A stretch of 64,000 nt of DNA from Candidatus Omnitrophota bacterium (lineage in GTDB: Bacteria > Omnitrophota > Gorgyraeia > Duberdicusellales > 4484-171), in assembly GCA_021735655.1 (NCBI GenBank), contig JAIPGM010000001.1:277262-341261 (forward strand), in the 5' to 3' direction. A program made the position numbers and the translations under genes. The notes beneath the pieces were generated by a model. The model had not been told where the DNA came from, searched no databases, and was given only the letters and a program-made list of their open reading frames with translations. Shown in pieces: positions 13,912 to 33,910 of this stretch; position 1 is the first letter of the stretch; every line of letters begins with the position of its first letter.

Positions 13912-13913
13912 GC

Positions 13914-14801: not shown

Positions 14802-15287
14802 ATGCTTTGTGATATTTGCCATAAAAACATTGCTACAGTTCATCTTACCGAGATTATTAATGATAAGGTAGCTGAGATGCATATTTGCCAGGCTTGTGCT
14901 CAGAATAAGTCTGAAGGTCTTGCTCAGCAGCCGAATATTTCTGATTTTGTTGGCGGTCTGGTAAATGCTGATTTGACTAAAAAAGATAATCGAGCCTTAA
15001 AATGCCCGGCCTGCGGTTTTAACTATAATGATTTTAAGAAAAAAGGGAGGCTGGGCTGTGGCCGGTGTTATACAGCTTTTAGAAGACAGTTACTTCCTTT
15101 GCTTAAGAAGATTCACGGAGCAATCCGCCATACTGGTAAAATTCCTTTAGATGTTAAGAGACCGGTTTCTTCAGAAGTAAAGTTAAGAGAGTTAAATGAT
15201 CAGCTAGAGCGGGCGATCCAGCTGGAGGAATACGAAGCGGCAGCAAAAATTAGAGATAAACTTAAGAAGTTGGATAAAAACAAGTAG
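14802..15287 (+). CDS. mcsA: protein-arginine kinase activator McsA (zinc fingers + UVR domain)
   Basis: CDIC..CQAC and CPACG..CGRC pairs. C-terminal UVR-like LERAIQLEEYEAAAKIRD. Confidence 0.7.
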   Translation: MLCDICHKNIATVHLTEIINDKVAEMHICQACAQNKSEGLAQQPNISDFVGGLVNADLTKKDNRALKCPACGFNYNDFKKKGRLGCGRCYTAFRRQLLPLLKKIHGAIRHTGKIPLDVKRPVSSEVKLRELNDQLERAIQLEEYEAAAKIRDKLKKLDKNK

Positions 15288-15298
15288 TAATTTAAATA

Positions 15299-16366
15299 AT
15301 GTTTAGGAATTTTCTCGATAACAAAGATAGTTGGTTGAGCAAGAAGGGTCCGGAATCGGAGATCGTTTTCTCATCGCGCATCCGTCTGGCTCGTAACATT
15401 GACGGAATTCCTTTTCCTTCTAAAGCTACAATTGCTCAACGGGAGGAAGTATTCAAGTCAGCCAAGGAAGCCTATCCGCATATTAAAAGATTCAAGAATA
15501 GTTTTTTTGTTAACATGGATGACCTCGGAGAGCTAGATAGTCACTTTCTTCTTGAGCGGCACTTAATTGCTCAAGAGCACTTAGTCCAGGCTTCACACCG
15601 AGGACTTATTATGTCTAAGGATGAGGAGATTTCAATCATGGTAAATGAGGAAGATCACTTCCGGATGCAGGTAATTACCTCTGGTTTTGATCTGAAGAAA
15701 TGCTGGGATATTCTTGATAATATCGATAATGATTTGAGTAAAAAAATATCTTTCTCTTTTTTGCCCGATGTAGGCTATCTAACTGCTTGTCCGACTAATG
15801 TTGGAACCGCACTTAGAGCGTCATGTATGTTGCATCTCCCAGCATTAATCCTTACCAAACGGATCAATAAGATTTTAGAGCTTTTGGCCCGGATATCTTT
15901 TACTACTCGGGGTTTGTTTGGTGAAGGCACGCAAGCTTTAGGAAATTTTTTTCAGATTTCCAACCAAGTGAGTTTAGGTTTAAGCGAGGAAGAGCTAATC
16001 GACAATTTGATCAGTGTAGTTAACCAGGTCAAAAATCACGAAATCGGTGCTCGCAATATTTTGATTAAGAAGTACAAAAAGAATCTAGAGGATAATGTCT
16101 GGCGGGCTTTAGGAATTTTAAGAAATGCTCGTTTGATTAATAGCAAAGAAGCCCTGAGTCATCTTTCTATCTTGTCATTAGGCCTAGATTTAGGTATAAT
16201 TAAAGATGTAGATTTTTCAAAGTGTAAGACTGGCAAGAAGTTGTTGCGTAACTTATTTATTATGATTCAACCGGCTCATTTACAAAAAATTGAAGGCCGG
16301 ACTTTAAAAGAAAAAGAACGTGATTCAATTAGAGCCGATATTTTAAGAGAAAGGTTAGGAGGATAA
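15299..16366 (+). CDS. mcsB: protein arginine kinase McsB (ATP:guanido phosphotransferase)
   Basis: Active-site CPTNVGT motif of phosphagen kinases. Confidence 0.85.
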   Translation: MFRNFLDNKDSWLSKKGPESEIVFSSRIRLARNIDGIPFPSKATIAQREEVFKSAKEAYPHIKRFKNSFFVNMDDLGELDSHFLLERHLIAQEHLVQASHRGLIMSKDEEISIMVNEEDHFRMQVITSGFDLKKCWDILDNIDNDLSKKISFSFLPDVGYLTACPTNVGTALRASCMLHLPALILTKRINKILELLARISFTTRGLFGEGTQALGNFFQISNQVSLGLSEEELIDNLISVVNQVKNHEIGARNILIKKYKKNLEDNVWRALGILRNARLINSKEALSHLSILSLGLDLGIIKDVDFSKCKTGKKLLRNLFIMIQPAHLQKIEGRTLKEKERDSIRADILRERLGG

Positions 16367-16370
16367 TAAA

Positions 16371-18815
16371 ATGTTTAATCGTTTTACTGAAAGAGCAAGA
16401 AAAGTTTTAGTTTTGGCAAAAGAAGAGGCCCGTCGTTTTAATCACGATTATATTGGCACTGAGCATATCCTTCTAGGATTGATTCGCGAAGGCGAAGGGG
16501 TAGCCTGTGCGGTTTTGCAAAATTTAGGCGTTGATTTAGAACGTTTACGTATTGAAATTGAAAAGTTGATTTCTACCGGAAGTGTATCCTCGGTGTTGGG
16601 AGATATTCCTTTTACCCCTCGCGCTAAAAAGGCTTTAGAACTGTCGGCTGAGGAGGCTAGGAATTTAGGTCATAATTATATTGGAACCGAACATATACTT
16701 TTAGGTTTACTTCGTGAAGAAGAAGGCATTGCCTCACAGGTTTTAATTTCTTTAGGGGCGGATTTAAAAAGAATAAAAAATGAGATTTCTGCTCTTTTAG
16801 GCGGAGCAACACAAACTCAAAATCAGAATACTAATCAAAGTTCGTCGAAAACGCCGGCTTTGGATTCTTTTGGTCGTGACTTAACTAAGCTAACTCGTGA
16901 TGGAAAGCTTGACCCAGTTATCGGAAGAAAAACCCAAATTGAAAGAGTGATCCAAATTTTATCCCGAAGAACAAAAAATAACCCGGTGCTTTTAGGTGAA
17001 GCCGGAGTTGGTAAGACAGCGATTGTTGAGGGTTTAGCCCAGGACATTATTAAAGGTGATGTTCCCGAGGTTTTGCGGGGAAAACGAATAATAGTTTTAG
17101 ACTTGGCTTTAATGATTGCCGGAACCAAGTATCGCGGTCAGTTTGAGGAAAGAATAAAAGCGGTAATGGAGGAGATAAAGCGTTCTAAAGATGTAATTAT
17201 CTTTATCGATGAGCTCCATACTTTAGTTGGTGCCGGTGCCGCCGAAGGAGCGATTGATGCTTCTAATATTTTAAAACCAGCCTTAAGCCGCGGCGAAATC
17301 CAATGCATTGGAGCAACTACTCTTGATGAATATAGAAAACATATTGAGAAAGATGCTGCTCTTGAGCGGAGATTTCAGTCAATATATGTTGAACCCAATA
17401 GCGTTGAGGAAACTATTCAGATTTTAGAAGGTTTGCGTGATAAGTACGAAGCTCATCATCGGGTTAAATTTACCGACGAGTCATTATCGGCTGCGGCAAA
17501 ACTGTCTGATCGTTATGTTTCGGGAAGATTTTTGCCGGATAAAGCTATCGATTTAATTGATGAGTCGGGTGCCCGATCAAGATTGAATGTATTAACCGCA
17601 CCTTCAGAAATAAAGGAACTAGAGGAGAGAATTTCTAATATTATTATTGAAAAAGAAGCGCTTATTAAGCAACAGGATTTCGAAAAGGCTGCTCGTCTTC
17701 GTGATGAAGAAAAAACTTTGCGCCTTAAGTTGGAGGTTTTAAGAAAAGAATGGAGTAAGAAAAGAGATCAGATTACTCCTGAGGTTGGATATGAAGAAAT
17801 TGCTCGGCTAGTAGCTAGCATTACTGGTGTGCCGATCTATCGTTTAGAGGAAAAAGAATCAGAAAAACTTTTAAAGATAGAGCATGATCTACGTGAAAGA
17901 GTGGCCGGGCAAGATGAAGCAATTGATGCAATTGCTCGTTCAGTTAGAAGAGCCAGGGCTGGAATCAAAGAACCGCGTCGGCCGATTGGTTCGTTTTTGT
18001 TTATGGGCCCTACCGGGGTAGGCAAGACTTTGCTTGCTCGGGCTTTAGCTGAATATATGTTTGGTAATGAAGAAGCACTTATCCAATTGGACATGAGTGA
18101 ATATATGGAAAAATTTAATGTTTCAAGGTTGCTTGGGGCTCCTCCGGGATATGTTGGTTATGAAGAGGGGGGTCAGCTTACTGAGCGCGTGAGACGTCGG
18201 CCCTATTCGGTTGTGCTTTTAGACGAAATTGAAAAAGCTCATCCTGATGTGTTTAATATACTTTTACAAATTTTAGAAGAAGGAAGATTAACTGATAGTT
18301 ATGGTCGAAGAGTTGATTTTAGAAATACAATTTTGATTATGACTTCTAATGTCGGAGCTGGAATAATCAGAAAGCGGGGCTCTTTGGGGTTTAAAGCAAT
18401 TAGTGAAGATATAAGCTATGAAGAAATGAAGAATCTTCTTCTTGAAGAAGTAAAGAAGACCTTTAAGCCGGAATTTTTAAATCGTTTAGATGAGACGGTT
18501 GTTTTTAGGCCATTGAATAGAAAAGATTTGGCAAGGATAGTAGATATCGAAATAGCTTATGTTAATAGTCGAATAGCTGAGCAAGGTTTTGAAGCTATAC
18601 TAAGCCCTAAAGCTAAGGATTTATTTATTGAAAAAGGGTTTGATCCGGTTTTTGGCGCAAGACCCTTAAAGAGAGTTATTCAAAGATTCCTTGAGGATCC
18701 TTTGGCTGAGGATATTATTAGAGGCAAATTTACCGAAAAGCTAAAAAAGAAGTCAGAGAGCGATAAAATAAAGATAAAAGTAATTAAAAAAGGGGGAGCT
18801 TTAGTATTTGAATGA
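16371..18815 (+). CDS. clpC: ATP-dependent Clp protease ATP-binding subunit ClpC
   Basis: Two Clp_N repeats; two AAA+ modules (GEAGVGKT, GPTGVGKT); middle UVR-like linker. Confidence 0.9.
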   Translation: MFNRFTERARKVLVLAKEEARRFNHDYIGTEHILLGLIREGEGVACAVLQNLGVDLERLRIEIEKLISTGSVSSVLGDIPFTPRAKKALELSAEEARNLGHNYIGTEHILLGLLREEEGIASQVLISLGADLKRIKNEISALLGGATQTQNQNTNQSSSKTPALDSFGRDLTKLTRDGKLDPVIGRKTQIERVIQILSRRTKNNPVLLGEAGVGKTAIVEGLAQDIIKGDVPEVLRGKRIIVLDLALMIAGTKYRGQFEERIKAVMEEIKRSKDVIIFIDELHTLVGAGAAEGAIDASNILKPALSRGEIQCIGATTLDEYRKHIEKDAALERRFQSIYVEPNSVEETIQILEGLRDKYEAHHRVKFTDESLSAAAKLSDRYVSGRFLPDKAIDLIDESGARSRLNVLTAPSEIKELEERISNIIIEKEALIKQQDFEKAARLRDEEKTLRLKLEVLRKEWSKKRDQITPEVGYEEIARLVASITGVPIYRLEEKESEKLLKIEHDLRERVAGQDEAIDAIARSVRRARAGIKEPRRPIGSFLFMGPTGVGKTLLARALAEYMFGNEEALIQLDMSEYMEKFNVSRLLGAPPGYVGYEEGGQLTERVRRRPYSVVLLDEIEKAHPDVFNILLQILEEGRLTDSYGRRVDFRNTILIMTSNVGAGIIRKRGSLGFKAISEDISYEEMKNLLLEEVKKTFKPEFLNRLDETVVFRPLNRKDLARIVDIEIAYVNSRIAEQGFEAILSPKAKDLFIEKGFDPVFGARPLKRVIQRFLEDPLAEDIIRGKFTEKLKKKSESDKIKIKVIKKGGALVFE

Positions 18816-19735
18816 AAAATTGCCTTTTTATGCTCCTCTTTTTTATTATTCTGAGTTTAATCGGAATATCTGCTTTTCCATTTTCAGAAAATTACATCGA
18901 ATTTAACTTAAACAATAGAGAAATAAAATTAGTAGACTTTAACCTTGGTGATTATGCTCTAAGTGGAGATTTTTCGCTGGGCAGCTATCAAGATCAAGGT
19001 TCTTTGATTTACGAGGTTGAGGGGCGTAACGTTTCTATTGGTGCTTCGGAGGGGTCGTCTTTGACCTTCGGTGATAAAACAATACCTTGGCTTGCGCTTA
19101 AAGCAGTAAAACGGGGTGAGGTTATTTTTATCGAGCAACTTTGTTGGCCGCAAGCTTTAATCAAAGGGAGTATTGACTTAGCTAAGTCTAATTTTTCTTT
19201 GGATATTAATACCGAGTGGGATGCGGCAAATCAGTTTTTAGAGGGGCACTTAAAAGTTTCGGCTAAGGCTTGGGGCAGTAGTAGTAATTTTTCACTCAGC
19301 GGTTTTTTAACTATTGACCAGGGGACCTATAAGGGTAGGGAGTTTGCCCATTTACGTTTAGATCTTTTGGGGAAACCACCGGTACTCAATATTACTGATT
19401 CAGAGTTTGTTATGACTGATGGTACGGTAGCAACTCTTGAAGGAGATAAAGTTCTAGATTTAAGAAATCTGTATAGCTATATACCACAAGCCGAATATCG
19501 GGCTAAAAAGGCCTTTATTGATGAGTGGCAACTCTTTTCGGAAGATGAAAGTAGGTTCGGATTAAAGAAAAGTCTTGATGAGAATATAGATGTTTCGGTT
19601 GGAACCGACAAACAAGAAGATTCAGCTTCGCCTGACACCGAGTTGCGTTACAGGATGAAAGATGATAAGTATTTGAAGCTAAAAATGCAAGAAAATAGCA
19701 CCGTTATTGGTATTGAAAAGCGAAGGGATTTTTGA
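18812..19735 (+). CDS. hypothetical secreted protein, translationally coupled between clpC and mlaE
   Basis: Signal peptide. ATGA overlaps at both ends. No recognisable family. Confidence 0.35.
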   Translation: MKNCLFMLLFFIILSLIGISAFPFSENYIEFNLNNREIKLVDFNLGDYALSGDFSLGSYQDQGSLIYEVEGRNVSIGASEGSSLTFGDKTIPWLALKAVKRGEVIFIEQLCWPQALIKGSIDLAKSNFSLDINTEWDAANQFLEGHLKVSAKAWGSSSNFSLSGFLTIDQGTYKGREFAHLRLDLLGKPPVLNITDSEFVMTDGTVATLEGDKVLDLRNLYSYIPQAEYRAKKAFIDEWQLFSEDESRFGLKKSLDENIDVSVGTDKQEDSASPDTELRYRMKDDKYLKLKMQENSTVIGIEKRRDF

Positions 19736-20499
19736 TGAGCCTATTGAAATCAGTTGGCCAATTATTTCATTATTTGGGTAGTTTGGGATTTTTCGCTAAA
19801 GATACCATTCGTTGGATTTTTATCAAAAAGCGCAGCTTAAGGGCAATTGGTAGAGAGATTGTCTTTATCGGTATCGATAGCCTGCCTTTGGTCTCGCTTA
19901 TTTCATTTTTTCTTGGAATAATTATTGCTTTTCAGACTGCTTATCAATTAAGAGCATTTCGTTCGGAAATTCAGCTGGCAACCTTAGTCGCTCTTTCGAT
20001 GGTTAGGGAGTTGGGCCCGGTTATCGGAGCATTAATCGTTGCCGCTAGAAGTGGTGCTTCAATCACTGCCGGGATTGGCTCGATGAAGATAAGTGAGCAA
20101 ATAGATGCTTTAGAGACTTTCGGGGTGGATCCGATAGATTATCTGGTTGTGCCTAAGTTTTTAGCTTTAGCAATTTGCATGCCGATTCTAATTATCTACG
20201 CTGATTGTATGGGGATAATCGGCGGTTATCTTGTCGGTACAACTAAGTTTGGAATTAGCCTCGGTTTATATTTTAGAATGACTTTTCAAGCTTTAGGCGG
20301 CCGAGATATTATGAGCGGCTTGGTTAAGAGTTTTTCCTTTGGCAGCATTATTGCTTTTGTATCTTGTTATGAAGGATTTCGTCCTTCTTCTTCGATTGAC
20401 GTATCGCGTTCAGTTACTCATTCGGTAGTGCGTTCGTTTATCTTTATTGTTGCTTTTGATTGTGTATTAACGGCACTTTTTTACTTTACTGGAGTATGA
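19732..20499 (+). CDS. mlaE: phospholipid ABC transporter permease
   Basis: MlaE/YrbE-family multi-TM permease. Confidence 0.8.
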   Translation: MMSLLKSVGQLFHYLGSLGFFAKDTIRWIFIKKRSLRAIGREIVFIGIDSLPLVSLISFFLGIIIAFQTAYQLRAFRSEIQLATLVALSMVRELGPVIGALIVAARSGASITAGIGSMKISEQIDALETFGVDPIDYLVVPKFLALAICMPILIIYADCMGIIGGYLVGTTKFGISLGLYFRMTFQALGGRDIMSGLVKSFSFGSIIAFVSCYEGFRPSSSIDVSRSVTHSVVRSFIFIVAFDCVLTALFYFTGV

Positions 20500-21248
20500 T
20501 AAAAATAAGAGGAATAAGCAGGTCGTTTGGCGAAAAACAGATTCTAAAAGGAATCAACCTTACGGTTAATAAGGGGGAAACTTTCCTTTTGATTGGACGC
20601 AGTGGCGCCGGGAAAACTGTCCTTTTAAAGAATATTATCGGCTTGCTTCGACCGGATCATGGTACAATTTGCATTGATGATGTTGATATTACTCAGTTGA
20701 GCAAAAAGAAATTAGAAAAAGTAAGGTTAGAATTTGGTTTAGTTTTTCAAGGCAGTGCTTTGTTTGATTTTTTAAGTATCGAGGAAAATGTTGGATTTTT
20801 TCTTTATCAGCATACAACTTTGAGTAAACGGCAGATAAGAAAAAAGGTTACCGAAACATTAGCCTTGGTAGGGTTAAAGGGGATAGAAGATTCTTATCCT
20901 TATGAATTAAGTGGTGGAATGAGAAAGCGGGTTGCTATAGCTCGCTCAGTTATTTATAATCCGAAAATTATAATTTATGATGAGCCGACAACCGGAATTG
21001 ACCCGATCGCTGTTGACAAGATAGTTTCTTTAATTGAAGATCTCCATCGGCGCCTCGGGATTACCTCAGTAGTGGTAACGCATGATTTAGAAGTCGGCTT
21101 AAGGCTTGCGGATCGATTGGCTTTTCTGCTTGGTGGCAAGATAATATTTGAGGGCGATAAAGAAGATCTAAAAAATAGTAAAGACGACCGCCTTATTCAA
21201 TTCTTAAAAGGGTCTTCTGGAGGCCCAATACAGGAAATGGAGGTATAA
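20496..21248 (+). CDS. mlaF: phospholipid ABC transporter ATPase
   Basis: MIKIRGISRSFG..GRSGAGKT Walker A; LSGGMRKRVAIAR. ATG 20496 overlaps the mlaE stop. Confidence 0.8.
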   Translation: MIKIRGISRSFGEKQILKGINLTVNKGETFLLIGRSGAGKTVLLKNIIGLLRPDHGTICIDDVDITQLSKKKLEKVRLEFGLVFQGSALFDFLSIEENVGFFLYQHTTLSKRQIRKKVTETLALVGLKGIEDSYPYELSGGMRKRVAIARSVIYNPKIIIYDEPTTGIDPIAVDKIVSLIEDLHRRLGITSVVVTHDLEVGLRLADRLAFLLGGKIIFEGDKEDLKNSKDDRLIQFLKGSSGGPIQEMEV

Positions 21249-21250
21249 AT

Positions 21251-21967
21251 ATGACTGTAAAAAATCTTTGGGATAGGAAGAAAAATATCGTTTACATTAA
21301 AGTGGGGAGTTTTTTCTTAGGAGCGTTGATTATAGTATTCATTACACTGATTTCCTTGAAAGAGGTAAATATTTTTAAAGGTACCTATGAAGTGACGGTT
21401 ACCTTTGATTTTGCCGAAGGGTTAGCGAATGCTTCCCCGGTCCGTTTTTGCGGTGTAGACGTAGGTGAGGTAAGAACGGTAGTAGTTAAGGAGATTGGCG
21501 ATAAGCCGTTGGTATTTGTTTATGCGAAGATAGAAAAAGGAGTGAATATTCCTAAAGACTCCTATTTTTTTGTAAATAGTTTAAGCTTGTTCGGTGAAAA
21601 GTATCTAGAGATCGATCCGCCGCAAAAGGTAACTGCTTATATCCAAGAGGGTGATATTGTTGAAGGAATCTCTCCGGTTCCCTTGTTTGATATTTTTGCC
21701 AGTGCTTCCAAAACCATGAATGAGGTAAGAGCTTTTTTAAGAGAGGGCGAAATTAAACAGTCAGTTGCCAATATAGTTAATAATATTGAAGATGTTACTT
21801 TAGAAGTGAAGGGTTTACTTGAAGATATGAAGGACAAACAAGGGACCATCGGACGCTTGCTGTATGACGATTCACTTTATCAAACAACCGAGGAGTTTAT
21901 CGGAGATTTGAAGGCTCATCCTTGGAAGTTATTACATAAGCCTAAAGATCGCAAAAAAAGAAAATAG
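21251..21967 (+). CDS. mlaD: MCE-domain periplasmic substrate-binding protein
   Basis: N-terminal TM helix plus an MCE domain (GTYEVTVTFDFAEGL..PVRFCGVDVGEV). Confidence 0.7.
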   Translation: MTVKNLWDRKKNIVYIKVGSFFLGALIIVFITLISLKEVNIFKGTYEVTVTFDFAEGLANASPVRFCGVDVGEVRTVVVKEIGDKPLVFVYAKIEKGVNIPKDSYFFVNSLSLFGEKYLEIDPPQKVTAYIQEGDIVEGISPVPLFDIFASASKTMNEVRAFLREGEIKQSVANIVNNIEDVTLEVKGLLEDMKDKQGTIGRLLYDDSLYQTTEEFIGDLKAHPWKLLHKPKDRKKRK

Positions 21968-22067
21968 GAAATTTTAGAAGGTAGTTAATTGATTAAAGAT
22001 GCAGTCTTTATCACGTCGGTTTTAGTATTAACTACTTACCAATTACCAATTATTCAATTATATAATC

Positions 22068-23393
22068 ATGTTTAATTGTTCCGGATGCGGGTATCAATCG
22101 GTTAAATGGTTGGGCAAATGCCCTACTTGCCAAGGCTGGGAGACTTTTGTTGAGGAGGTAAAAAAAACCTCCGGTGGCGTTAGAAAGGAGAAGCGTTTAC
22201 CTCAACTTATCGGTGAAATAGATTCAAAAGAGCTATCGCGGATCGAAACCGGAATTGGGGAGTTTGATCGAATGCTCGGCGGTGGGCTTGTTCCCGGCGA
22301 GGTAGTGCTTATTGGTGGTGAGCCCGGCGTAGGCAAGTCAACTCTTTTGCTGGAAGTGGCTGCCCGTCTCACCAAAAATGGTAAGACTCTCTATGTTAGT
22401 GCTGAAGAGTCAATTGAGCAGCTAACTCTTAGAACTAAACGTTTTCAAAGCGATACCAAAAAACTTTATATTCTTGATGAAGACAATGTTGAATATATCT
22501 ATAAAGCGATTCAGGAGAATGGATTCAAATTTGTGGTAATTGATTCGATTCAGGTAGTTTATTATCCGCAACTTGATGGTTCCAAGGGAAGCATCTCTCA
22601 GATTAGAGGCTGCACTGATTACCTTACTCAGATAGCCAAAACCTTGGGAATTGTTATTTTTATGGTTGGCCATGTTACTAAGGATGGTGCAATTGCTGGG
22701 CCTAAAGTACTTGAACATATTGTCGATTGTGTTCTTTATTTTGAAGGTGAATCACTTTCGAATTATCGTATTTTACGGTCAATGAAGAATAGGTTTGGAC
22801 CGACTGGGGATTTAGCTGTTTTTGAGATGAAATCAATTGGGTTAGCGGAGGTTAAGAAGACCACTGATATTTTTCTTCCTCATCGTGAGCAATCATTTCC
22901 GGGGAGCTGTGTTGTTTGTGTAATTGAAGGGTTGCGACCATTGTTGATTGAGCTTCAATCTTTAGTCAGTCGGGCTTCTTTTGGAGTGGCCCGTCGAAGA
23001 AGTCTTGGTTTTGATTTCAACCGGTTTTCACTTTTGGTGGCGATTATTGAAAAACGCTTAAAATTATCTCTTTCCAGCGAAGATATTTTTTTAAATGTTG
23101 CCGGGGGCTTGAGACTTAATGACCCCGCAGCAGATTTTGGTGCAGTGATGGCAATTATATCTAGCTTTCGGGATAAGAATTTACCTCCCGAGACGCTTTT
23201 TATCGGAGAGGTAGGGCTGGCCGGTGAGCTGCGGCGTGTTTCTAACATAAATTTGCGACTGAAGGAAGCTCAAAGAGCTGATTTTAAATATTGTATAATT
23301 CCTGAGCCTAACCTAAAGGAGGTGGATAAAGGTTTTAGTTCAAGAATTAAAAGTTATGGTTGTCTAAAAGAGGCAGTGAAAGAGGTATTCTGA
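22068..23393 (+). CDS. radA: DNA repair protein RadA/Sms
   Basis: N-terminal C4 zinc finger CSGCG..CPTCQ; RecA-like GEPGVGKST; Lon-like C-terminal domain. Confidence 0.9.
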   Translation: MFNCSGCGYQSVKWLGKCPTCQGWETFVEEVKKTSGGVRKEKRLPQLIGEIDSKELSRIETGIGEFDRMLGGGLVPGEVVLIGGEPGVGKSTLLLEVAARLTKNGKTLYVSAEESIEQLTLRTKRFQSDTKKLYILDEDNVEYIYKAIQENGFKFVVIDSIQVVYYPQLDGSKGSISQIRGCTDYLTQIAKTLGIVIFMVGHVTKDGAIAGPKVLEHIVDCVLYFEGESLSNYRILRSMKNRFGPTGDLAVFEMKSIGLAEVKKTTDIFLPHREQSFPGSCVVCVIEGLRPLLIELQSLVSRASFGVARRRSLGFDFNRFSLLVAIIEKRLKLSLSSEDIFLNVAGGLRLNDPAADFGAVMAIISSFRDKNLPPETLFIGEVGLAGELRRVSNINLRLKEAQRADFKYCIIPEPNLKEVDKGFSSRIKSYGCLKEAVKEVF

Positions 23394-23451
23394 GTGAAAA
23401 AAGTATTCATTAATCAATTCTGCAAAAAGCAGACATGCTGAGGAGGTTTTT

Positions 23452-24438
23452 ATGGGTTTATTTTTTTTAAGAATCTTGTTTATTTTAATTTTTATCGGAA
23501 TGGGTTATGTTCTGGGCGGAACCGATTCAATATTTTTTGCGGCAATCGGCGCTGCGGTTGGTATCGTTGTCGTTCTCTTTGAGGTGTTTGCCCGGCGAGT
23601 TTCCTTAAAAGGCTTATCTAGCGCAGTATTTGGAATAATGCTGGGGCTTTTGTTGGCTTGGATATTTTCTGAAACCTTAAACCAATTTTCATCATCTCCA
23701 GATTTCCCTTCCCAAGTAGTTAATAATATTAGAATATTTGTCACTTTCATCTTTGTTTACTTGGGACTCACCTTAGGCCTAAAAGGCAAAGATGACTTCC
23801 ATTTAATTATTCCTTATATTAAGTTTAAACGTCAAGAGTTGAAGGAAGAAATTATTGTCATGGATACTAGTGTTATTATTGACGGAAGGATACTAGATCT
23901 TGTGAAGACTAGGTTTATCGAAGCTAAGTTTTTAGTTCCTCGGTTTGTACTTAATGAACTTCATGCTTTGAGTGATTCCACTGATCATATGAAACGCCAA
24001 AAGGGGAAGCGGGGTATTGAAATTCTACATTCTTTAAAACAAGAGCCAAACATTGACGTTGAAATATATGATAAGCCGGTAGAAGGGGTTAAAAGTGTAG
24101 ATGAGAAGATTATCCGTTTGGGTCAAGAGCAAGATGCTAAGGTCATGACCACTGATTATAATTTAAACCGGATAGCTCAGTTGCAGGGCGTAGGTGTTTT
24201 AAATATCAATGATTTAGCTAATGCTTTGAAGCCAACTTTTGTTGCCGGTCAGCGTTTTCAACTCAAGTTGATAAAAGAAGGTAAGGAACAGAGCCAGGCT
24301 ATAGGTTACCTAGAGGACGGAACTATGGTTGTGGTTGAGGGTGGTCGACGCTTAATCGGTAAAATTGTAACTATTGAGGTTACTTCGATTTTACAGAGTT
24401 CAAGCGGAAGAATTGTGTTTACAAAATTAGCAAAGTAG
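23452..24438 (+). CDS. PIN/TRAM-domain membrane-anchored protein (YacL-like)
   Basis: N-terminal TM helices, a PIN domain (IIVMDTSVIIDGR) and a C-terminal TRAM-like barrel. Sits downstream of radA as in Bacillus. Confidence 0.7.
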   Translation: MGLFFLRILFILIFIGMGYVLGGTDSIFFAAIGAAVGIVVVLFEVFARRVSLKGLSSAVFGIMLGLLLAWIFSETLNQFSSSPDFPSQVVNNIRIFVTFIFVYLGLTLGLKGKDDFHLIIPYIKFKRQELKEEIIVMDTSVIIDGRILDLVKTRFIEAKFLVPRFVLNELHALSDSTDHMKRQKGKRGIEILHSLKQEPNIDVEIYDKPVEGVKSVDEKIIRLGQEQDAKVMTTDYNLNRIAQLQGVGVLNINDLANALKPTFVAGQRFQLKLIKEGKEQSQAIGYLEDGTMVVVEGGRRLIGKIVTIEVTSILQSSSGRIVFTKLAK

Positions 24439-24441
24439 GTA

Positions 24442-25104
24442 ATGAACCTTGGCGTAGTAATTGTTTCTGCTGGCATTGGCACGCGGCTCGGAAAGCGAGA
24501 TAAGCCAATTTTAAAGTTAGGCTCGAAGCCTCTTTTTTCCCATAGCTTAGAAGTTTTTAAAAGTCTAAAACAGGTAAAGCAGATTGTTTTGGTGTTGAGA
24601 AAGAGCCATTTTCGTTTAGCTCGAAAGTTTATTCAAGACGGCCGAGTGATTTTAGTTGAGGGTGGCGCACGGAGAAGAGATTCAGTATATAACGGTTTGT
24701 TGGCTTTAGACGGCGGTATTGATTCGGTTCTTGTCCACGACGGAGCCAGGCCGCTGATAAGTAGAGAACTAGTAATTAAGGTAATCAAAGCACTTAAAAT
24801 TAATCCGGCAGTAATTTTAGGAGTTAAAGCTACTGATACCTTGAAGTTGACTAAAGGAAAGATTATCAAAAAGACTGTTAAGCGGGATGATTTTTATTGT
24901 GCTCAAACCCCGCAAGGTTTTAGAAAAGATTTAATAGTCGAGGCTTATAAAAAGTTTAAGTCAAAAGCAATCACCGATAGTGCCCAGGCGGTTGAGCTTT
25001 TAGGTAAGCGAGTTAAAATCGTAGAGGGGGATAGATATAATATTAAAATAACCTATCCCCAAGATATAGCTTTAGCTGAAGCTATATATAGACTTAAGAG
25101 GTGA
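24442..25104 (+). CDS. ispD: 2-C-methyl-D-erythritol 4-phosphate cytidylyltransferase
   Basis: VIVSAGIGTRLG N-terminal motif. Confidence 0.85.
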   Translation: MNLGVVIVSAGIGTRLGKRDKPILKLGSKPLFSHSLEVFKSLKQVKQIVLVLRKSHFRLARKFIQDGRVILVEGGARRRDSVYNGLLALDGGIDSVLVHDGARPLISRELVIKVIKALKINPAVILGVKATDTLKLTKGKIIKKTVKRDDFYCAQTPQGFRKDLIVEAYKKFKSKAITDSAQAVELLGKRVKIVEGDRYNIKITYPQDIALAEAIYRLKR

Positions 25105-25110
25105 AAGGAT

Positions 25111-25587
25111 ATGAATGGTTATCAAGTTGGTTTGGGGTTTGATGTTCATAAATTTAGCACAAAGAAGAAAAGCTTAATTCTGGGCGGGATGAAGATTCCG
25201 GCTGCCTTTAGTCTTGAAGCAGTTTCTGATGGAGATTTAATATTACATGCAGTAAGTGATTCGATACTTGGCGCAGCTGGTTTAGGCGACATCGGTGATT
25301 ATTTTCCTCCTGAGAGCAAGCAGTCAAAGAATATCGATAGCATAGATATCACTCGCTTTGTGCTTAAAAAAATCGGCGGCAAATACAAAATTGAGAATGT
25401 TGATATTATTATCGTAGCCGATAAACCTCGTCTAGTTAAGTATAAACAGGCAATTACTAAATCTTTGAGGAAGATCCTAGTAACAGTAAATGTGAACCTA
25501 AAGATTAAATCGAAAGAGGGCCAAAACATTCTTGGTACCAAAAATGGTATGAGCTGTTTAGCTGTAGCTCTTTTGAAGGAAAAATGA
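25111..25587 (+). CDS. ispF: 2-C-methyl-D-erythritol 2,4-cyclodiphosphate synthase
   Basis: GFDVHKF..SDGDLILHAVSDSILGAAGLGDIG motifs. Confidence 0.85.
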   Translation: MNGYQVGLGFDVHKFSTKKKSLILGGMKIPAAFSLEAVSDGDLILHAVSDSILGAAGLGDIGDYFPPESKQSKNIDSIDITRFVLKKIGGKYKIENVDIIIVADKPRLVKYKQAITKSLRKILVTVNVNLKIKSKEGQNILGTKNGMSCLAVALLKEK

Positions 25588-26987
25588 GTATCAAAATATA
25601 TAATTCGCTGAGCAGGAAAAAGGAAGAGTTTAAACCTTTGAGAAAAGGTAAGGTTTCAATGTATGTTTGCGGTCCGACCGTTTATGGCGAGCCGCACATC
25701 GGACACGTGCGCAGCGCCTATATATTTGATGTTATTCGACGCTATTTTGAATCTAAAAAATACAAAGTTAAATTTGTTAGGAATGTAACCGATATTGACG
25801 ATAAGATAATTAATAAGGCCAAGGAAGAATTTAAAAATGAGGATATAAATATCGCAGTTAAGAAGGTTTCAGAAAAGTATCTTAAGGCTTATCATGAATG
25901 TATAGATGAATTGGGAATAAAGAAACCTACCCATGAACCAAAGGCTACTGAATATATCAAGAAGATGATAGCTTTTATACAAAAGTTAATCAAAAAAGGC
26001 GTTGCTTATGAGTCAGGAGGAGATGTCTATTTTGATATCACCAAGGCTATCGGCTATGGTAAATTATCTAACCAGAGCTTAGAGATGTTGGAGTCAGGAT
26101 CGAAAAAAGATCAAATCGGGATTAAGCATAACCAGTTAGATTTTGCTCTTTGGAAGAAGGCCAAACCTGATGAACGCAGTTGGAATAGTCCTTGGGGACA
26201 GGGGCGCCCGGGTTGGCATATTGAATGCTCGGTTATGAGTTCTGATATTTTAGGCAGTCAGTTTGATATCCATGGCGGAGGAATTGATCTTATTTTTCCT
26301 CATCATGAAAATGAAATCGCTCAATCTGAAGGCGCCGGCGGAAAATTTGCTAGGTATTGGATTCATAATGGTCTTTTGACAATTAATAAAGAGAAGATGG
26401 CTAAATCATTAGGCAATTTTATTACTATTAATGAGCTAGAAGATCGAGGCTACCCTCTAGATGTGCTTAAACTTTTATTTTTGCAAAGTCATTATTCACA
26501 TCCGGTAGATTTTACTTGGGAAAGAATGGAGGAGTTAAAGAAAGCTTACGAAAGAATTTTGATATTGGTCGATAAGGCTAAGGGTGTCCAGAGTGGTCTT
26601 GGAGAGGAAGGTATGCTTATGTATAAACAGCAGTTTACTGAAGCGATGGATGATGATTTTAATGCCGCAAAGGCTTTAGCTGTATTATTTGATTTAGTTG
26701 CAAGGTGTAATAAACTTTTAGAAAGCGACCAGGAGAATAAACAATTCATGCTTCGCCGTGGGGTAGAACTAATAAAAGAAATGGGAGGTATTCTTGGGCT
26801 TAGCTTTAAACAGGAGATAGCTAAAGGAGTGTCGGTTGAGGAGATAGATGAGAAGGTTAAACTTAGGTCAGAGTGTAAGCAGAAGAAAAAGTTTGACCAG
26901 GCTGATTCAATCAGGAAAGACTTAGAAGCTAAAGGAATCATTTTAGAAGACACTAAGGATGGAACAACATGGCGAAGAAAGCTTTAA
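25584..26987 (+). CDS. cysS: cysteinyl-tRNA synthetase
   Basis: HIGH (PHIGH) and KMAKSLGN (KMSKS) class I motifs. Confidence 0.9.
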   Translation: MSIKIYNSLSRKKEEFKPLRKGKVSMYVCGPTVYGEPHIGHVRSAYIFDVIRRYFESKKYKVKFVRNVTDIDDKIINKAKEEFKNEDINIAVKKVSEKYLKAYHECIDELGIKKPTHEPKATEYIKKMIAFIQKLIKKGVAYESGGDVYFDITKAIGYGKLSNQSLEMLESGSKKDQIGIKHNQLDFALWKKAKPDERSWNSPWGQGRPGWHIECSVMSSDILGSQFDIHGGGIDLIFPHHENEIAQSEGAGGKFARYWIHNGLLTINKEKMAKSLGNFITINELEDRGYPLDVLKLLFLQSHYSHPVDFTWERMEELKKAYERILILVDKAKGVQSGLGEEGMLMYKQQFTEAMDDDFNAAKALAVLFDLVARCNKLLESDQENKQFMLRRGVELIKEMGGILGLSFKQEIAKGVSVEEIDEKVKLRSECKQKKKFDQADSIRKDLEAKGIILEDTKDGTTWRRKL

Positions 26988-27601
26988 AAGCCAAGAAAAA
27001 AGCAATTTTTATTACCATTGAAGGGCTAGAAGGTTGTGGAAAAAGCAGCGTTATAAAATTTTTAAATAATTTTTTAAGGCGGAAAAAGTTTTCGGTTAAA
27101 ATTTATCGTGAGCCAGGCTCAACCGCAATCGGTGAAAAGATCCGAAAAATTCTTTTAGATAAAAAGAACAAGAAATTGTCGGCACACACAGAACTCTTGT
27201 TATATTTAGCAGCCAGAACCCAGCTCATCGAGGAGGAGTTAGAAAAAAGCCTGTTGAAATATGATTTTGTTATTTGTGATCGTTTTTTTGATTCTACTCT
27301 AGTTTACCAAGGCTTTGCTCTTGGCTTAAAGAAAGCTACTGAACTTTCAGTTAAAATATTTTCTTTAGGAATTAAGCCGGATTTAACATTTTATCTTGAT
27401 CTTCCGGCAAAAAAAGGCCTTAGTCGCTTAAAGACGCGTGATCGGATCGAGTCGCGGCCTTTAAATTTTCATAATAAGCTACGCAAAGGATTCTTACAGC
27501 TTTCAAAAAGATATCCTCGCCGGATAAAAACTATTGATGCCCGCGGAGATTTAGAAAGTATCTATAAAAAAATAAGCAGAATTTTAGTCAAGTATTGTTA
27601 A
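26969..27601 (+). CDS. tmk: thymidylate kinase
   Basis: FITIEGLEGCGKSS P-loop. Confidence 0.85.
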   Translation: MAKKALKAKKKAIFITIEGLEGCGKSSVIKFLNNFLRRKKFSVKIYREPGSTAIGEKIRKILLDKKNKKLSAHTELLLYLAARTQLIEEELEKSLLKYDFVICDRFFDSTLVYQGFALGLKKATELSVKIFSLGIKPDLTFYLDLPAKKGLSRLKTRDRIESRPLNFHNKLRKGFLQLSKRYPRRIKTIDARGDLESIYKKISRILVKYC

Positions 27602-27631
27602 TTTTTAATAGTCGCCAAATTGACGCTTACG

Positions 27632-28414
27632 ATGGACCAAAGCCAAGAGTTATTTAGTTATTTCCATACCCTTAAAAAACATTCCTGCATTGGAGTCGGC
27701 TATACTTTTATCGGAGAGGACTTTTCGCAAGTTCCCGATATTATAAAATTGATAAATTGTCAAGATGCAGATCGTTTTTGTAATAGTTGCTGGGATTGCA
27801 AACGGATCGACGAGGCTAATCACCCGGATTTATTGACAATTGAGCCGCAGGGCTTAACTATAAAAATCGAAGCTATTCGTGAGGCGATTCGTTTTCTTTC
27901 TTTAAAAAGTTTTCGTCTAACACGTAAAGCTATAGTTATAAAAGGTGCCCAAAATTTAACTCCCCAGGCTGCAGCAGCATTTCTGAAGACTTTGGAGGAG
28001 GCCCCGGACAATTCTTTCATTGCTCTTTGTATGTCAAAATTAGACGGGGTTCCGGCAACAATTATCTCGCGTTGCCGGAAGATTTTCTTACCGTTTAGCC
28101 AAAATAGCCTAGTTTCGAGCGATCGGGAACTTATTTTTGATCTTTTCGCCGGCCGGGATCTGTTTTTTAAGGACCGTAAGGAATTTTCTGTTTTCTTATG
28201 GGGACTAATTGCTTTGCTGCATACTGATTTATTGGTAAAAAAGGGTGGGCGAAATAATCAGTTGTCTAATTATAAGGAATGTGCGATAATTTTAAATTCT
28301 TACAGTCCGTCCCGAATCAGCAGTATTTTAGAGGATTTATTGAAAATTTACAGTGCTCATGGTAGCGTGAATATTAATTTAGCCCTGAATTTAATAAAGG
28401 CTAAACTAAAATAA
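27632..28414 (+). CDS. holB: DNA polymerase III delta' subunit
   Basis: AAA-like clamp-loader fold with a CxxC zinc module. ATG 27632 (track ORF starts at TTG 27620). Confidence 0.65.
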   Translation: MDQSQELFSYFHTLKKHSCIGVGYTFIGEDFSQVPDIIKLINCQDADRFCNSCWDCKRIDEANHPDLLTIEPQGLTIKIEAIREAIRFLSLKSFRLTRKAIVIKGAQNLTPQAAAAFLKTLEEAPDNSFIALCMSKLDGVPATIISRCRKIFLPFSQNSLVSSDRELIFDLFAGRDLFFKDRKEFSVFLWGLIALLHTDLLVKKGGRNNQLSNYKECAIILNSYSPSRISSILEDLLKIYSAHGSVNINLALNLIKAKLK

Positions 28415-28424
28415 GGAAAAGATA

Positions 28425-29219
28425 ATGAAAGTTGCTTTAGTACGGTTGCGCGAAGCTGGACAGCTGATGACTTATAAGGTTACCGAGGACGTCAGTGTTC
28501 ATGATTATGTTATTGTTGAGGCCGATCGGGGACTTGATTATGGTGAGGTCATCGAAGTAAGTGAGGCCAACCTTTGTCCAAAAAGTGAGAGTAAGGAAAG
28601 TTCGGTCAAAAGTATTGTCCGAAAGCTAACTCCCCCAGACAAGAAGGTGATTAAAGCAAATAGGCAGGAATCCAAAGATGCGATGCGCTTATGTGCGCGT
28701 AAAATTAGAGAGTACAAATTAGCGATGAAGTTGGTTGACGCTGAGTATTCTTTCGATAAGAAAAAAATTGTTTTTTATTTTACTTCTGAAGGAAGAGTAG
28801 ACTTTCGGGAACTAGTAAAAGAGTTAGCCAAAGTTTTTAAGATTAGAATAGAGATGCGGCAAATTGGCGTACGCGACGAAGCCAGGCTTTTTGGCGGCGT
28901 AGGACCTTGCGGTCACTCTCTTTGTTGTATCCGATTTTTGAAAAGTTTTGAGCCGGTAAGTATGAAGATGGCTAAGGCTCAGAAATTACCTTTAAGTAGT
29001 GGTAAAATTTCCGGTATTTGCGGAAGGTTAATGTGTTGTCTTTTTTATGAGTACAAGAATTATCGTGAATTATCTAAGGGATTACCTAAAGAGGGCCAAA
29101 CTATCGATACTGAACAAGGAAAGGGTAAGGTAATTTCAGTAAATGTTTTAAAGCGGCTTGTCTGTGTTCAGTTTGAAGATGGCCGAACAGAAAAAATCAC
29201 CTTTAAAGAAAATGAGTAA
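28425..29219 (+). CDS. ricT: PSP1 C-terminal domain protein (RicT/YaaT-like)
   Basis: PSP1 domain with conserved Cys cluster (GPCGHSLCC..CGRLMCC). Confidence 0.7.
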   Translation: MKVALVRLREAGQLMTYKVTEDVSVHDYVIVEADRGLDYGEVIEVSEANLCPKSESKESSVKSIVRKLTPPDKKVIKANRQESKDAMRLCARKIREYKLAMKLVDAEYSFDKKKIVFYFTSEGRVDFRELVKELAKVFKIRIEMRQIGVRDEARLFGGVGPCGHSLCCIRFLKSFEPVSMKMAKAQKLPLSSGKISGICGRLMCCLFYEYKNYRELSKGLPKEGQTIDTEQGKGKVISVNVLKRLVCVQFEDGRTEKITFKENE

Positions 29220-30765
29220 GTTTTATCTTACTACCCCTATTTATTATGTGAATTCCGAACCGCATATCGGCCACGCCTATACCAATATAATTTCTGATTG
29301 CACGGCTCGTTATCAACGCTTGAAAGGCAACCAGGTTTTCTTTTTGACTGGCACTGATGAACATGGCGAAAAAATAAAGAAGGCTGCTGAGGCTCAGCAA
29401 CAAGAGGTTAAGGTTTTCATCGACAATAAGGCAGAGATATTCAGGAAGTTGTGGGAAAAACTAAATATTTCCAATGATTTTTTTATTCGGACCACTGATG
29501 ATTTCCATAAACAAGTAGTTCAGGTGGTGGTTAGTAAATTAATTGAAAAGGGTGATATCTATAAGGCCAAATATAAGGGGTTTTATTGTACCCCTTGTGA
29601 AGGTTTTTGGACTCCGGTTCAAGTTAAGGAAGCTGGAGGTTGTCCGGACTGTAAGCGGGAGGTTCAGCTTATCGAAGAGGATAATTATTTCTTTAAACTT
29701 TCAAAATATCAGGATTGGTTAGTTAGTCATCTTAAAAATAATCCTGGTTTTGCGCAACCCAAGAGTCGTTATAATGAGGTATCAGCATTTTTAGAAAAGA
29801 ATAAGTTGGAGGATTTGTGTATTTCCCGTCCTAAAAAGCGTTTAAGTTGGGGGGTTGCTTTTCCCGGTGACGATCAATATGTAATTTATGTCTGGTTTGA
29901 TGCTTTAATTAATTATATTAGTGGAGCCGGTTACAGTATAGATCAGGAAAAATTCTCTCGACTTTGGCCAGCCGAGATTCATTTTATGGCTAAGGATATC
30001 CTACGCCACCATGCCATATTTTGGCCGATAATGCTAAAGGCTTTGGATCTTGAACTGCCTAAAGTTGTTTTTGCCCATGGTTGGTGGAAGTTTGAGGGTG
30101 AAAAAATGTCTAAATCAAGAGGGAACATCGTCAATCCTTTTGACGTTATCGAGACTTTAGCTATTTCACTCTCAGGAAGCAAAGAGATGGCCGTAGATGC
30201 TTTACGATACTTTTTGTTGCGCGAGGTACCAATAGGTTCTGACGGTACTTTTTCTTGGCCGGCTTTGTTTAATCGAACTAACTCTGATTTAGCTAATGAT
30301 TTAGGTAATTTAGTCTATCGGACCTTAAATATGGCTGAAAAGTATTTTGAAGGTAAAGTTAAGCCCTCAAAGAGCAGTCTCCCTTTTGAGTTTAAGCAAA
30401 GTCTTGGTAACCTTGAGGCTAGGTATTCTGAGCTTATGGATAGTTGTGCTTTTTCAGTTGCCCTAGAGGAAGTTTTTGGTTTTATTAGAGCCATGAATAA
30501 GTTTATCGAAGACTCAAAGCCTTGGACTCTTTGGAAAGAGAAAAAGGTTGAAGAACTTGAAAACTTTTTATATTATCTTCTTGAAGGCATTCGTATATCA
30601 GCTTTGTATTTATCTGCGGCTATGCCGAATGCGGCTAAGTCGATTTATTCTCAGTTAGGGCTAACTCAGGGTGAATTTTCTTTAGCTTCAGCTAAATGGG
30701 GCACTCAGAAAGAATTCAAAATAAAAAAAGAAAAACCGCTTTTTCCACGCATTGATGCTGATTGA
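29212..30765 (+). CDS. metG: methionyl-tRNA synthetase (short form, no C-terminal tRNA-binding domain)
   Basis: HIGH (PHIGHAY), KMSKS, zinc knuckle CTPCEG..CPDC. ATG 29212 with RBS. Track ORF begins at TTG 29158. Confidence 0.9.
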   Translation: MSKFYLTTPIYYVNSEPHIGHAYTNIISDCTARYQRLKGNQVFFLTGTDEHGEKIKKAAEAQQQEVKVFIDNKAEIFRKLWEKLNISNDFFIRTTDDFHKQVVQVVVSKLIEKGDIYKAKYKGFYCTPCEGFWTPVQVKEAGGCPDCKREVQLIEEDNYFFKLSKYQDWLVSHLKNNPGFAQPKSRYNEVSAFLEKNKLEDLCISRPKKRLSWGVAFPGDDQYVIYVWFDALINYISGAGYSIDQEKFSRLWPAEIHFMAKDILRHHAIFWPIMLKALDLELPKVVFAHGWWKFEGEKMSKSRGNIVNPFDVIETLAISLSGSKEMAVDALRYFLLREVPIGSDGTFSWPALFNRTNSDLANDLGNLVYRTLNMAEKYFEGKVKPSKSSLPFEFKQSLGNLEARYSELMDSCAFSVALEEVFGFIRAMNKFIEDSKPWTLWKEKKVEELENFLYYLLEGIRISALYLSAAMPNAAKSIYSQLGLTQGEFSLASAKWGTQKEFKIKKEKPLFPRIDAD

Positions 30766-31543
30766 TTCTCATTGTCACCTCAATAACCTTTCAGAAATAA
30801 CCAGAAAAGAAATTCTGGATACTTCAAGAAATGACTTTCAATATTGCTTTATCGATTCGAGTATAGACCTGAATAGTTCTTTAGCTTCTAGTCGATTGTC
30901 GGCGAGTTGCGACCATGTCTATACATCATTAGGTTTTCATCCCTTATCGGGAGAGAGCTTTGATCATCAAACACCAAAAGCTTACGGAAATCTAATTAAA
31001 AATAATGATAAAGTTATTGCTGTCGGTGAAATCGGTCTTGACTACAAAGCGACTATATCAACCAAAAAACAGGAAGAAATTTTTAAGACTTTTATTAAAA
31101 TTGCTAAAGATAATAATTTGCCGATAACTATACATAATCGTATTAATCCTTTAGGAGATAAGTTAAATGAGCCTCAACGGGTATTGGATATATTGGATGA
31201 ATTTTATCAAACTTACGAAATGGTGATATTCCATTGTTTTTCTCATTCGGTCCAAATTTTAGAAAGAATTATTAAGAAGATGGGTTTTGTCTCTTTTTCT
31301 TTGAATATTTTGCGTAAGAGTAATAAAATACTTAGATCTTTAGAGAAATGCCCTTTAGAAAATATTTTGTTTGAGACCGATTCTCCTTATATGAGAATAA
31401 AAGATACCAATTCCACGCCTTTAGATATAGGTAAAGTCTACGATCGGGCAGCTCAAATAAAAGGTGTGGCGAGGGATGAATTAGAAAAACAAGTTTTTTT
31501 AAATGCCAGAAAGGCATTTTCATTTAACCCCGGAGGCAAATGA
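30752..31543 (+). CDS. tatD: TatD-family metal-dependent hydrolase
   Basis: IDSHCHL N-terminal motif and TIM-barrel pattern. Confidence 0.8.
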   Translation: MMLIDSHCHLNNLSEITRKEILDTSRNDFQYCFIDSSIDLNSSLASSRLSASCDHVYTSLGFHPLSGESFDHQTPKAYGNLIKNNDKVIAVGEIGLDYKATISTKKQEEIFKTFIKIAKDNNLPITIHNRINPLGDKLNEPQRVLDILDEFYQTYEMVIFHCFSHSVQILERIIKKMGFVSFSLNILRKSNKILRSLEKCPLENILFETDSPYMRIKDTNSTPLDIGKVYDRAAQIKGVARDELEKQVFLNARKAFSFNPGGK

Positions 31544-33425: not shown

Positions 33426-33430
33426 TTGAG

Positions 33431-33910
33431 ATGAAGTTTAATTTGACATTAAAGTTAAAGAGTTTATCGGCTACGGAAACTAAGCACTACGGTGAATTGT
33501 TTTCAAAGGCTTTGTCTGGTCGGGACCTGGTTGTATTAGTTGGAGCCTTGGGCGGCGGTAAAACTACCTTTACCAAGGGCATTCTTAAAGGTTTAGGTTA
33601 TCGGGGTCGGGTTCTAAGCCCATCATTTACTTTAGTACGTGAGTATCTAACTAAAAAGTTTAAGACCTATCATGTTGATTTATATCGCTTGGATAAAAAT
33701 GAGGCCTTAAACCTAGGGCTTGATGATTTTATCTATTCCGATAATAGTCTTACTTTGATTGAGTGGGGTGATAGGATAGATAAGGAATTGGATAAGTATA
33801 TAGTGGTTAAGTTCTCATACTTAGCTGAAAGTTCAAGGCAGTTATTAATTTCAACGGTAGGTTATAATAAGCAGAAAATAAAAGCCATAAAAGGATTGAT
33901 TAACAAATGA
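33431..33910 (+). CDS. tsaE: tRNA t6A37 biosynthesis ATPase TsaE
   Basis: P-loop GALGGGKTTFTKG. Confidence 0.8.
   Translation: MKFNLTLKLKSLSATETKHYGELFSKALSGRDLVVLVGALGGGKTTFTKGILKGLGYRGRVLSPSFTLVREYLTKKFKTYHVDLYRLDKNEALNLGLDDFIYSDNSLTLIEWGDRIDKELDKYIVVKFSYLAESSRQLLISTVGYNKQKIKAIKGLINK

Follow-up and report, generated by a model that had tools for sequence, protein, structure and literature searches.

A Bacillus-collinear gene array with an mcsA-mcsB-clpC module and no adjacent ctsR in Candidatus Omnitrophota

McsB-dependent arginine phosphorylation is still described as a Gram-positive trait (PMC11046695, PMC8370763, PMC10128030). A 64,000-nucleotide stretch of a Candidatus Omnitrophota genome, referred to here as the window, raises the question of how an mcsA-mcsB-clpC module set in a gene order known from Bacillus comes to stand among genes for Lol-, Mla- and Lpt-type transport, and what it does there. 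We propose with considerable confidence that the window holds a gene array that is conserved across the sampled Omnitrophota, is collinear with the clpC region of Bacillus, and encodes a McsAB-ClpC module that is probably Bacillus-like in action but lacks the CtsR switch.

The genes of the window were identified from a listing of open reading frames (ORFs) and by NCBIfam and Pfam family scans, and the mcsB neighbourhood of one Bacillus chromosome (L144) served as the reference. Eight window proteins, all encoded on the + strand, match this reference locus and keep its gene order and orientation: McsA (14802-15287, 32% identity), McsB (15299-16366, 40%), ClpC (16371-18815, 59%), RadA (22068-23393, 50%), the YacL-like protein (23452-24438, 48%), IspD (24442-25104, 38%), IspF (25111-25587, 34%) and CysS (25584-26987), of which only the start is matched as the Bacillus locus ends there. 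Agreement of two genomes in the order and orientation of eight orthologues is far beyond chance. The likeness extends to the McsA zinc fingers, the catalytic and receptor residues of McsB, and the phospho-arginine pockets and ClpP loop of ClpC. The two arrangements differ in several respects. In the Bacillus locus CtsR is encoded directly upstream of mcsA-mcsB-clpC, whereas the window has neither ctsR nor a CtsR box; its array lacks disA and gltX-cysE; the Omnitrophota insert lolCD-like genes and ilvE between lysS and mcsA, and an exported protein and mlaEFD between clpC and radA; and the host here, probably a diderm, belongs to the Planctomycetes-Verrucomicrobia-Chlamydiae (PVC) group, and its McsB has Lys in place of Arg194.

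Beyond cysS the window continues directly into tmk (26969-27601), holB (27620-28414), ricT (28425-29219), metG (29158-30765) and a tatD-family gene (30752-31543), all on the + strand and identified by family scans, whereas in B. subtilis the block from tmk to tatD presumably lies about 60 kb from cysS. The array runs on past tatD through mtnA, thiL, tsaE, tsaB and alr, which form its 3' end (31540..35675, + strand; NCBIfam and Pfam scans). Within it thiL-tsaE-tsaB are contiguous (32571-34572), an order conserved in related metagenome loci that we take to be that of the B. subtilis ydiA-ydiB-ydiC operon and so a third Bacillus-like micro-synteny. The array opens with lysS (10678..12093, + strand), and the resemblance to Bacillus would thus extend further upstream if lysS lies 5' of ctsR and clpC in B. 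subtilis, as we assume. For this position, for the thiL-tsaE-tsaB order and for the order tmk...holB-yaaT...metS-yabD that we likewise assume for B. subtilis, PMC3814617 offers only partial support. The labels BSU05910 and BSU05920 occur in that paper, and our literature search found no paper listing yacL-ispD-ispF-gltX-cysE-cysS together.

All genes from mcsA-mcsB-clpC to cysS and from tmk to tatD that the original prediction named from the sequence are present in the order it gave, and the coordinates agree with its statements that ilvE ends 12 nt upstream of mcsA and that no ctsR lies 5' of mcsA, ilvE being the upstream neighbour. Two details need amending: mlaEFD is present but does not follow clpC immediately, an exported 307-residue protein, x307 (18812-19735), intervening between clpC and mlaE; and the tatD-family gene, placed in the stretch 14802-30765, is located just past the end of that stretch.

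Which lineage carries this array? The McsB of the window is identical to an NCBI entry named 'MAG: protein arginine kinase [Candidatus Omnitrophica bacterium]', that is, from a metagenome-assembled genome (MAG), and encoded on a 341-kb contig, and x307 is identical to 'hypothetical protein K9L86_00685 [Candidatus Omnitrophica bacterium]'; a Logan assembly, made independently, carries the same McsB. With each species represented by a single genome, a scan yielded at least 568 relatives, of which the best 80 loci (L002-L081), chosen by McsB similarity and hence not taxonomically balanced, were analysed. Their McsB proteins are 47-74% identical to that of the window, and nearly all the loci are labelled Omnitrophota, with a minority of MAGs labelled Planctomycetia or Planctomycetales and a few loci labelled otherwise. 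No Bacillota name occurs among these 80 loci or among the best 120 proteins; Bacillota McsB proteins first appear at about 42-44% identity. The DNA belongs to a Candidatus Omnitrophota genome; NCBI taxonomy counts this phylum, a relative of Planctomycetes and Chlamydia, among the PVC group. Of the affinities considered earlier, a candidate phylum is the one that holds, and the suggested kinship with Negativicutes or Halanaerobiales has to be abandoned. A diderm envelope is suggested by the Lpt, Mla and Lol-like genes; no gene for outer-membrane beta-barrel machinery was found in the window.

Would the module work? The roles of individual McsB residues are taken from PMC11046695 and PMC8370763 and those of ClpC from PMC12583610. 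McsA has two zinc fingers built from four CxxC pairs, followed by a C-terminal UVR-like coiled coil; in the window protein C3, C6, C29, C32, C68, C71, C86 and C89 align with all eight cysteines of B. subtilis McsA, to which it aligns over its full length (8wtb_B, E 8e-29). McsB consists of the guanidino-phosphotransferase kinase domain (PF00217) and the McsB_C dimerisation domain (PF27454), scoring 409 bits against NF002194 (cut-off 385) and 290 bits against B. subtilis McsB. Its NEEDH motif, C167 (in CPTN), R29, R125, R176, R207 and E212 do not vary in any of 80 relatives, and N119 is kept in 79; the phospho-arginine receptor residues R337, D338 and R341 are likewise invariant in all 80, and S285 is replaced by Thr in 9, the other 71 having Ser. 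All catalytic residues are kept, contrary to the earlier proviso that McsB might lack them. ClpC (1025 bits and 59.5% identity to B. subtilis ClpC) has the phospho-arginine-binding N-domain and the short M-domain, and T7, E32, K85, E106, F436, the two Walker A/B pairs and the [L/I]GF loop vary little or not at all across 73 relatives; the ClpP-docking loop reads LGF in the window versus VGF in B. subtilis. From these residues we consider it most likely that mcsA-mcsB-clpC works as in Bacillus. Zinc-finger McsA would activate the McsB kinase, which would phosphorylate arginines of damaged proteins; the phospho-arginines would dock in both pockets of the N-domain of ClpC, turning the unfoldase on, and ClpC would then pass the substrate to ClpP via the LGF loop.

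The regulation of the module should nevertheless differ from that in Bacillus. Neither the window nor any related locus has ctsR upstream of mcsA. The CtsR operator RGTCAAANANRGTCAAA, searched with up to 3 mismatches, gave 10 matches versus 11.65 expected, none of them near mcsA, and a search for the CIRCE element (controlling inverted repeat of chaperone expression) returned zero matches. Tblastn searches with CtsR and YwlE of the window and of related loci totalling 1.89 Mb found nothing below E 0.3; the query sequences may be inexact, which makes this a weaker negative. A motif scan of the same sequences for low-molecular-weight protein tyrosine phosphatases gave one match (L132), whose frame is interrupted by stop codons, and family scans detected neither ClpP nor a YwlE-type phosphatase in the window. 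The module stands within an array of 26 co-directional housekeeping genes from lysS to alr (10678-35675) with intergenic gaps of -62 to +100 nt; from ilvE/mcsA through mlaE the gaps are 12, 11 (mcsA to mcsB), 4 (mcsB to clpC), -4 and -4 nt. The lack of a CtsR repressor or operator at the locus and the position of the genes inside a housekeeping array suggest that the module is expressed together with the housekeeping genes. McsAB would here probably be a writer of degradation tags and an activator of ClpC and not the switch of a heat-shock regulon. A candidate promoter with a perfect sigma-70-type consensus, TTGACA-17-TATAAT, lies in the 39-nt gap 5' of lysS (10640..10668, + strand) and is the sole 12/12 match in 9000-28000. 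The promoter and terminator scan was at chance level overall (50 matches observed versus 47 expected), and the consensus is therefore kept only as a lead for the array promoter.

The arrangement is shared widely among the relatives. In tblastn searches of L002-L081 with the window proteins, the order lysS-lolC-lolD-ilvE-mcsA-mcsB-clpC-...-radA-yacL-ispD-ispF-cysS-tmk was recovered from almost every locus that is long enough. About eight loci lack mlaEFD, and in these a gene of about 320 codons still lies between clpC and radA. The distal part behaves similarly: a metagenome scan with RicT found cysS-tmk-holB-ricT-metG-tatD-mtnA-thiL-tsaE-tsaB-alr in about 20 loci at 55-78% RicT identity, and tmk-holB-ricT-metG persists at 40-43%. 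Present in almost all sampled loci, down to 47% McsB identity, the order is conserved in the Omnitrophota as sampled here. Within the phylum McsB identity falls to 44% at the lowest, and the median between Omnitrophota and Bacillus is also 44%; divergence within the phylum is about as large as the distance to Bacillus, indicating that the arrangement is old within the Omnitrophota. Its minimum age is that of the sampled diversity of the phylum. The reservation that the genome might belong to a lineage in which this order is common is thereby borne out in substance, the order being nearly universal in the sampled Omnitrophota, although we found no paper saying so; our literature search found none that joins Omnitrophota with McsB, with ClpC in this context or with arginine kinase.

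The view that McsB would be unusual in a diderm was overstated, as mcsAB is carried by Chlamydia (together with ClpC), by a Planctomycetota MAG and by a lineage with a PilQ secretin. Homologues are also mentioned for some Gram-negative bacteria (PMC11046695), and Chlamydia has McsAB and a ClpC whose complex with ClpP degrades arginine-phosphorylated casein (PMC10128030, PMC11708050). C. trachomatis, with McsA (CT676), McsB (CT675) and ClpC, is a diderm and resembles the organism studied here, itself probably diderm, in belonging to the PVC group, in having all three proteins and in that CtsR-based regulation is not described for it in PMC10128030 and PMC11708050. The chlamydial mcsAB, in contrast, forms an operon of its own, away from clpC, with tRNA genes on either side (PMC10128030), whereas in the window mcsA-mcsB-clpC are contiguous and followed by the Bacillus-like order from radA to cysS. 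Other contexts were surveyed in the McsB family, grouped into 1624 clusters at 50% identity (E <= 1e-30); for the distant clusters the cluster names supplied few taxa. The distant loci (L145-L150) differ from one another and none has CtsR: mcsAB stands alone in the Planctomycetota MAG; an 8.8-Mb genome has mcsB-clpC-sigma70; and further loci have ilvE-mcsAB-clpC followed by a tetratricopeptide repeat gene and proS, lolCD-mcsAB-coaX without clpC, or mcsAB after a ribosomal-protein operon and near pilMNO and a secretin. The full contiguous mcsA-mcsB-clpC with its Bacillus-like continuation is specific to the Omnitrophota. In the same family, five representatives of 500-545 residues (P0341, P0345, P0369, P0372 and P0395) match McsB over their C-terminal ~340 residues only, which would fit McsA-McsB fusions. 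The public annotation of the window mcsB as a protein arginine kinase is already correct.

Several observations weigh against our proposal. ClpP, a phospho-arginine phosphatase and ctsR could all be encoded elsewhere in the genome, and co-transcription of the array is suggested by gene spacing alone. The statement that the order is conserved across the phylum draws on the 80 loci closest in McsB, a biased sample, and the more distant McsB-bearing lineages are arranged otherwise. The function assigned to the Omnitrophota McsA, McsB and ClpC derives from residues only; McsA reaches 147 bits against the Bacillus-type equivalog NF053706, whose cut-off is 210, McsB passes only one of five McsB models, and in it a Lys, shared with 53 of 80 relatives, occupies the position of B. 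subtilis R194. In B. subtilis phosphorylated Arg194 stabilises the closed octamer, and the R194K mutant is heat-sensitive (PMC8370763), so that the regulation of this McsB may differ from that in Bacillus. Arg stands at this position in 114 of 120 Bacillaceae, but the wider McsB family varies there, which makes this latch look like a Bacillaceae refinement. The replaced latch, and the fact that activity has been reported for no non-Firmicute McsAB (PMC11046695), might also suggest that the protein is no protein arginine kinase at all, acting instead on a small molecule as a phosphagen kinase or serving as an inactive adaptor. We regard this as improbable: the protein has the McsB-specific PF27454 and not the N-terminal domain of phosphagen kinases, its receptor site is intact and its catalytic residues are invariant in the 80 relatives, its gene is flanked by those of a two-zinc-finger McsA and a ClpC with intact phospho-arginine pockets, and position 194 varies generally outside the Bacillaceae. 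A genome of a diderm Firmicute (of Negativicutes, Halanaerobiales or Limnochordia type), in which the order would simply be the Firmicutes order, is more improbable still. It would account for the agreement with Bacillus and for a strand bias as in many Firmicutes, 59 of the 65 window ORFs being on the + strand and the GC skew being positive in every 2-kb bin (+0.05 to +0.26); such strong bias is associated with PolC-type replication in Firmicutes (PMC3814617). Against it, all named close relatives are MAGs labelled Omnitrophota or Planctomycetia, and Bacillota McsB proteins come in only at the identities given above. The chance that a Firmicutes fragment was fused to a Gram-negative contig by assembly or binning is close to negligible. 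Nothing but the mixed look of the gene content speaks for it, whereas genes related to the outer membrane alternate with Bacillus-like ones, with 4-nt overlaps, about 80 independent loci from many studies show the arrangement, the identical McsB is found on two independent assemblies, and composition is uniform along the window.

For the origin of the shared order two readings stand side by side, retention of a very old gene order and ancient horizontal transfer; the latter we consider possible though unlikely. The stem Omnitrophota would have taken mcsA-mcsB-clpC, or the whole block to cysS, from a Firmicute. This would explain why the extended order is not shared by the other PVC and non-Firmicute lineages sampled and would accord with the 59.5% identity between the two ClpC proteins; the separate, tRNA-flanked mcsAB of Chlamydia was read by the authors who described it as a possible transfer (PMC10128030). 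The collinear set, however, includes the essential single-copy genes radA, ispD, ispF, cysS and lysS, whose joint replacement is unlikely; identities of 34-50% to Bacillus are ordinary between phyla; and ctsR, always the first gene in Bacillus, is absent. The McsB divergence within the Omnitrophota, as deep as the distance to Bacillus, implies that any transfer predates the sampled diversity. The backbone lysS...mcsA-mcsB-clpC...radA-yacL-ispD-ispF...cysS, which would be collinear with the Bacillus clpC region throughout, may have a partial counterpart in M. tuberculosis, where we take Rv3598c-Rv3580c to run lysS-lsr2-clpC1...radA-disA...ispD-ispF-cysS1. That locus would share lysS, clpC, radA, ispD, ispF and cysS and would differ in lacking mcsA and mcsB, in having several unrelated genes interspersed, and in the envelope type of its host. 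It is tempting to speculate, with little probability attached, that the backbone was inherited from a very early bacterial ancestor and kept in Bacillota and Omnitrophota and in part also in Actinomycetota, that is, on both sides of the Terrabacteria/Gracilicutes divide. The diderm version with lolCD-like genes, a TamB-like exported protein and mlaEFD would then be nearer the ancestral state, and the monoderm Firmicutes would have lost the genes for outer-membrane lipid trafficking there and gained ctsR.

A phylum-conserved, Bacillus-collinear array with a CtsR-free module remains the reading we prefer, and it would mean that the complete McsA-McsB-ClpC module, its functional residues intact, appears to have been kept throughout a whole phylum that is uncultured and probably diderm. 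Taken with the occurrence in Chlamydia and Planctomycetota, the CtsR-free module of Omnitrophota suggests that what is widespread, as the core function, is degradation tagging, and that the Firmicutes would have added the heat-shock switch by CtsR. The order common to Omnitrophota and Bacillus is one more candidate for a gene order kept across distant phyla and possibly a rare genomic character for deep phylogeny. As comparative genomics the observation is a modest one; it brings no new mechanism, and the genes are already named correctly in the public record.

The exported protein x307 (307 residues, + strand, no family assignment) is encoded with a 4-nt overlap each with clpC and mlaE. Its family is exported, all-beta and 290-500 residues long, and follows clpC in 39 related loci, including loci without mlaEFD; the homologues in L002-L081 sit between clpC and mlaE or radA, and another lies at 14240-15523 of L151. 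The window protein has an N-terminal signal or anchor helix and ends in Phe, and the C-terminus ...G(V/I)E(K/H/R)xxxF is conserved in the family. Neither x307 nor five of its homologues matched any Pfam or NCBIfam family, a profile search with x307 found no PDB sequence match, and its AlphaFold model (predicted local distance difference test 80) had no significant Foldseek match in the PDB. One longer homologue has a faint match to TamB (PF04357). That x307 takes part in lipid trafficking together with MlaEFD is only a guess.

The remaining genes of the array were assigned with scores of varying quality. LysS, the lysine-tRNA ligase, scores 603 bits against NF001756 (cut-off 468), and IlvE, a branched-chain amino-acid aminotransferase (13908-14789, + strand), 454 bits against NF006185 (cut-off 363). 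Between them on the + strand lie a LolC/E-like permease (12093-13250; best match TIGR02212, 240 bits) and a LolD-like ATPase (13228-13911; best match TIGR02211, 247 bits), both below the equivalog cut-offs; their Pfam domains are MacB_PCD, FtsX and ABC_tran. ClpC itself is a class I AAA+ unfoldase, and McsA is assigned as the arginine kinase activator. The mla genes, also on the + strand, comprise mlaE (19732-20499), which just meets the cut-off of TIGR00056 (212.9 versus 212.2 bits), mlaF (20460-21248) and mlaD (21251-21967), for both of which MlaF and MlaD, respectively, are the best matches and below cut-off. RadA/Sms scores 542 bits against TIGR00416 (cut-off 403). The YacL-like protein is a membrane PIN-TRAM protein with four N-terminal hydrophobic helices, the PIN region of PRK13764 and a TRAM domain. 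IspD and IspF are above the cut-offs of TIGR00453 and TIGR00151, and CysS scores 531 bits against TIGR00435. In at least one relative ispD and ispF are fused, with IspD and YgbB domains in one frame (L151, 20826-21062 and beyond); in the window they are separate.

Downstream of the array, two genes on the - strand encode lipopolysaccharide export permeases like LptG (37029-38114) and LptF (38098-39186). Both match the Pfam family LptF_LptG (PF03739) well over gathering, with 213 and 258 bits, and their best NCBIfam matches, TIGR04408 and TIGR04407, are below cut-offs. The LptF/G, LolC/D and MlaEFD proteins reported earlier for the window are accordingly all present, most of them under the NCBIfam equivalog cut-offs. 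The listed ORFs cover about 96% of the window, and an Rfam scan of it gave tRNA-Met alone. The prepilin N-terminal methylation motif occurs in three small proteins (35685-36973, - strand, and 45807-46355); one has a type II secretion system G (T2SS-G) domain, and two adjoin the lptFG-like genes. Further downstream on the + strand (47365-59998) is an arginine biosynthesis array with genes for a semialdehyde dehydrogenase, ArgJ, an amino-acid kinase, an aminotransferase, ornithine carbamoyltransferase, and argininosuccinate synthase and lyase, followed by a lysine-pathway decarboxylase, DapF, DapA, DapB and an aminotransferase, an ordinary set.

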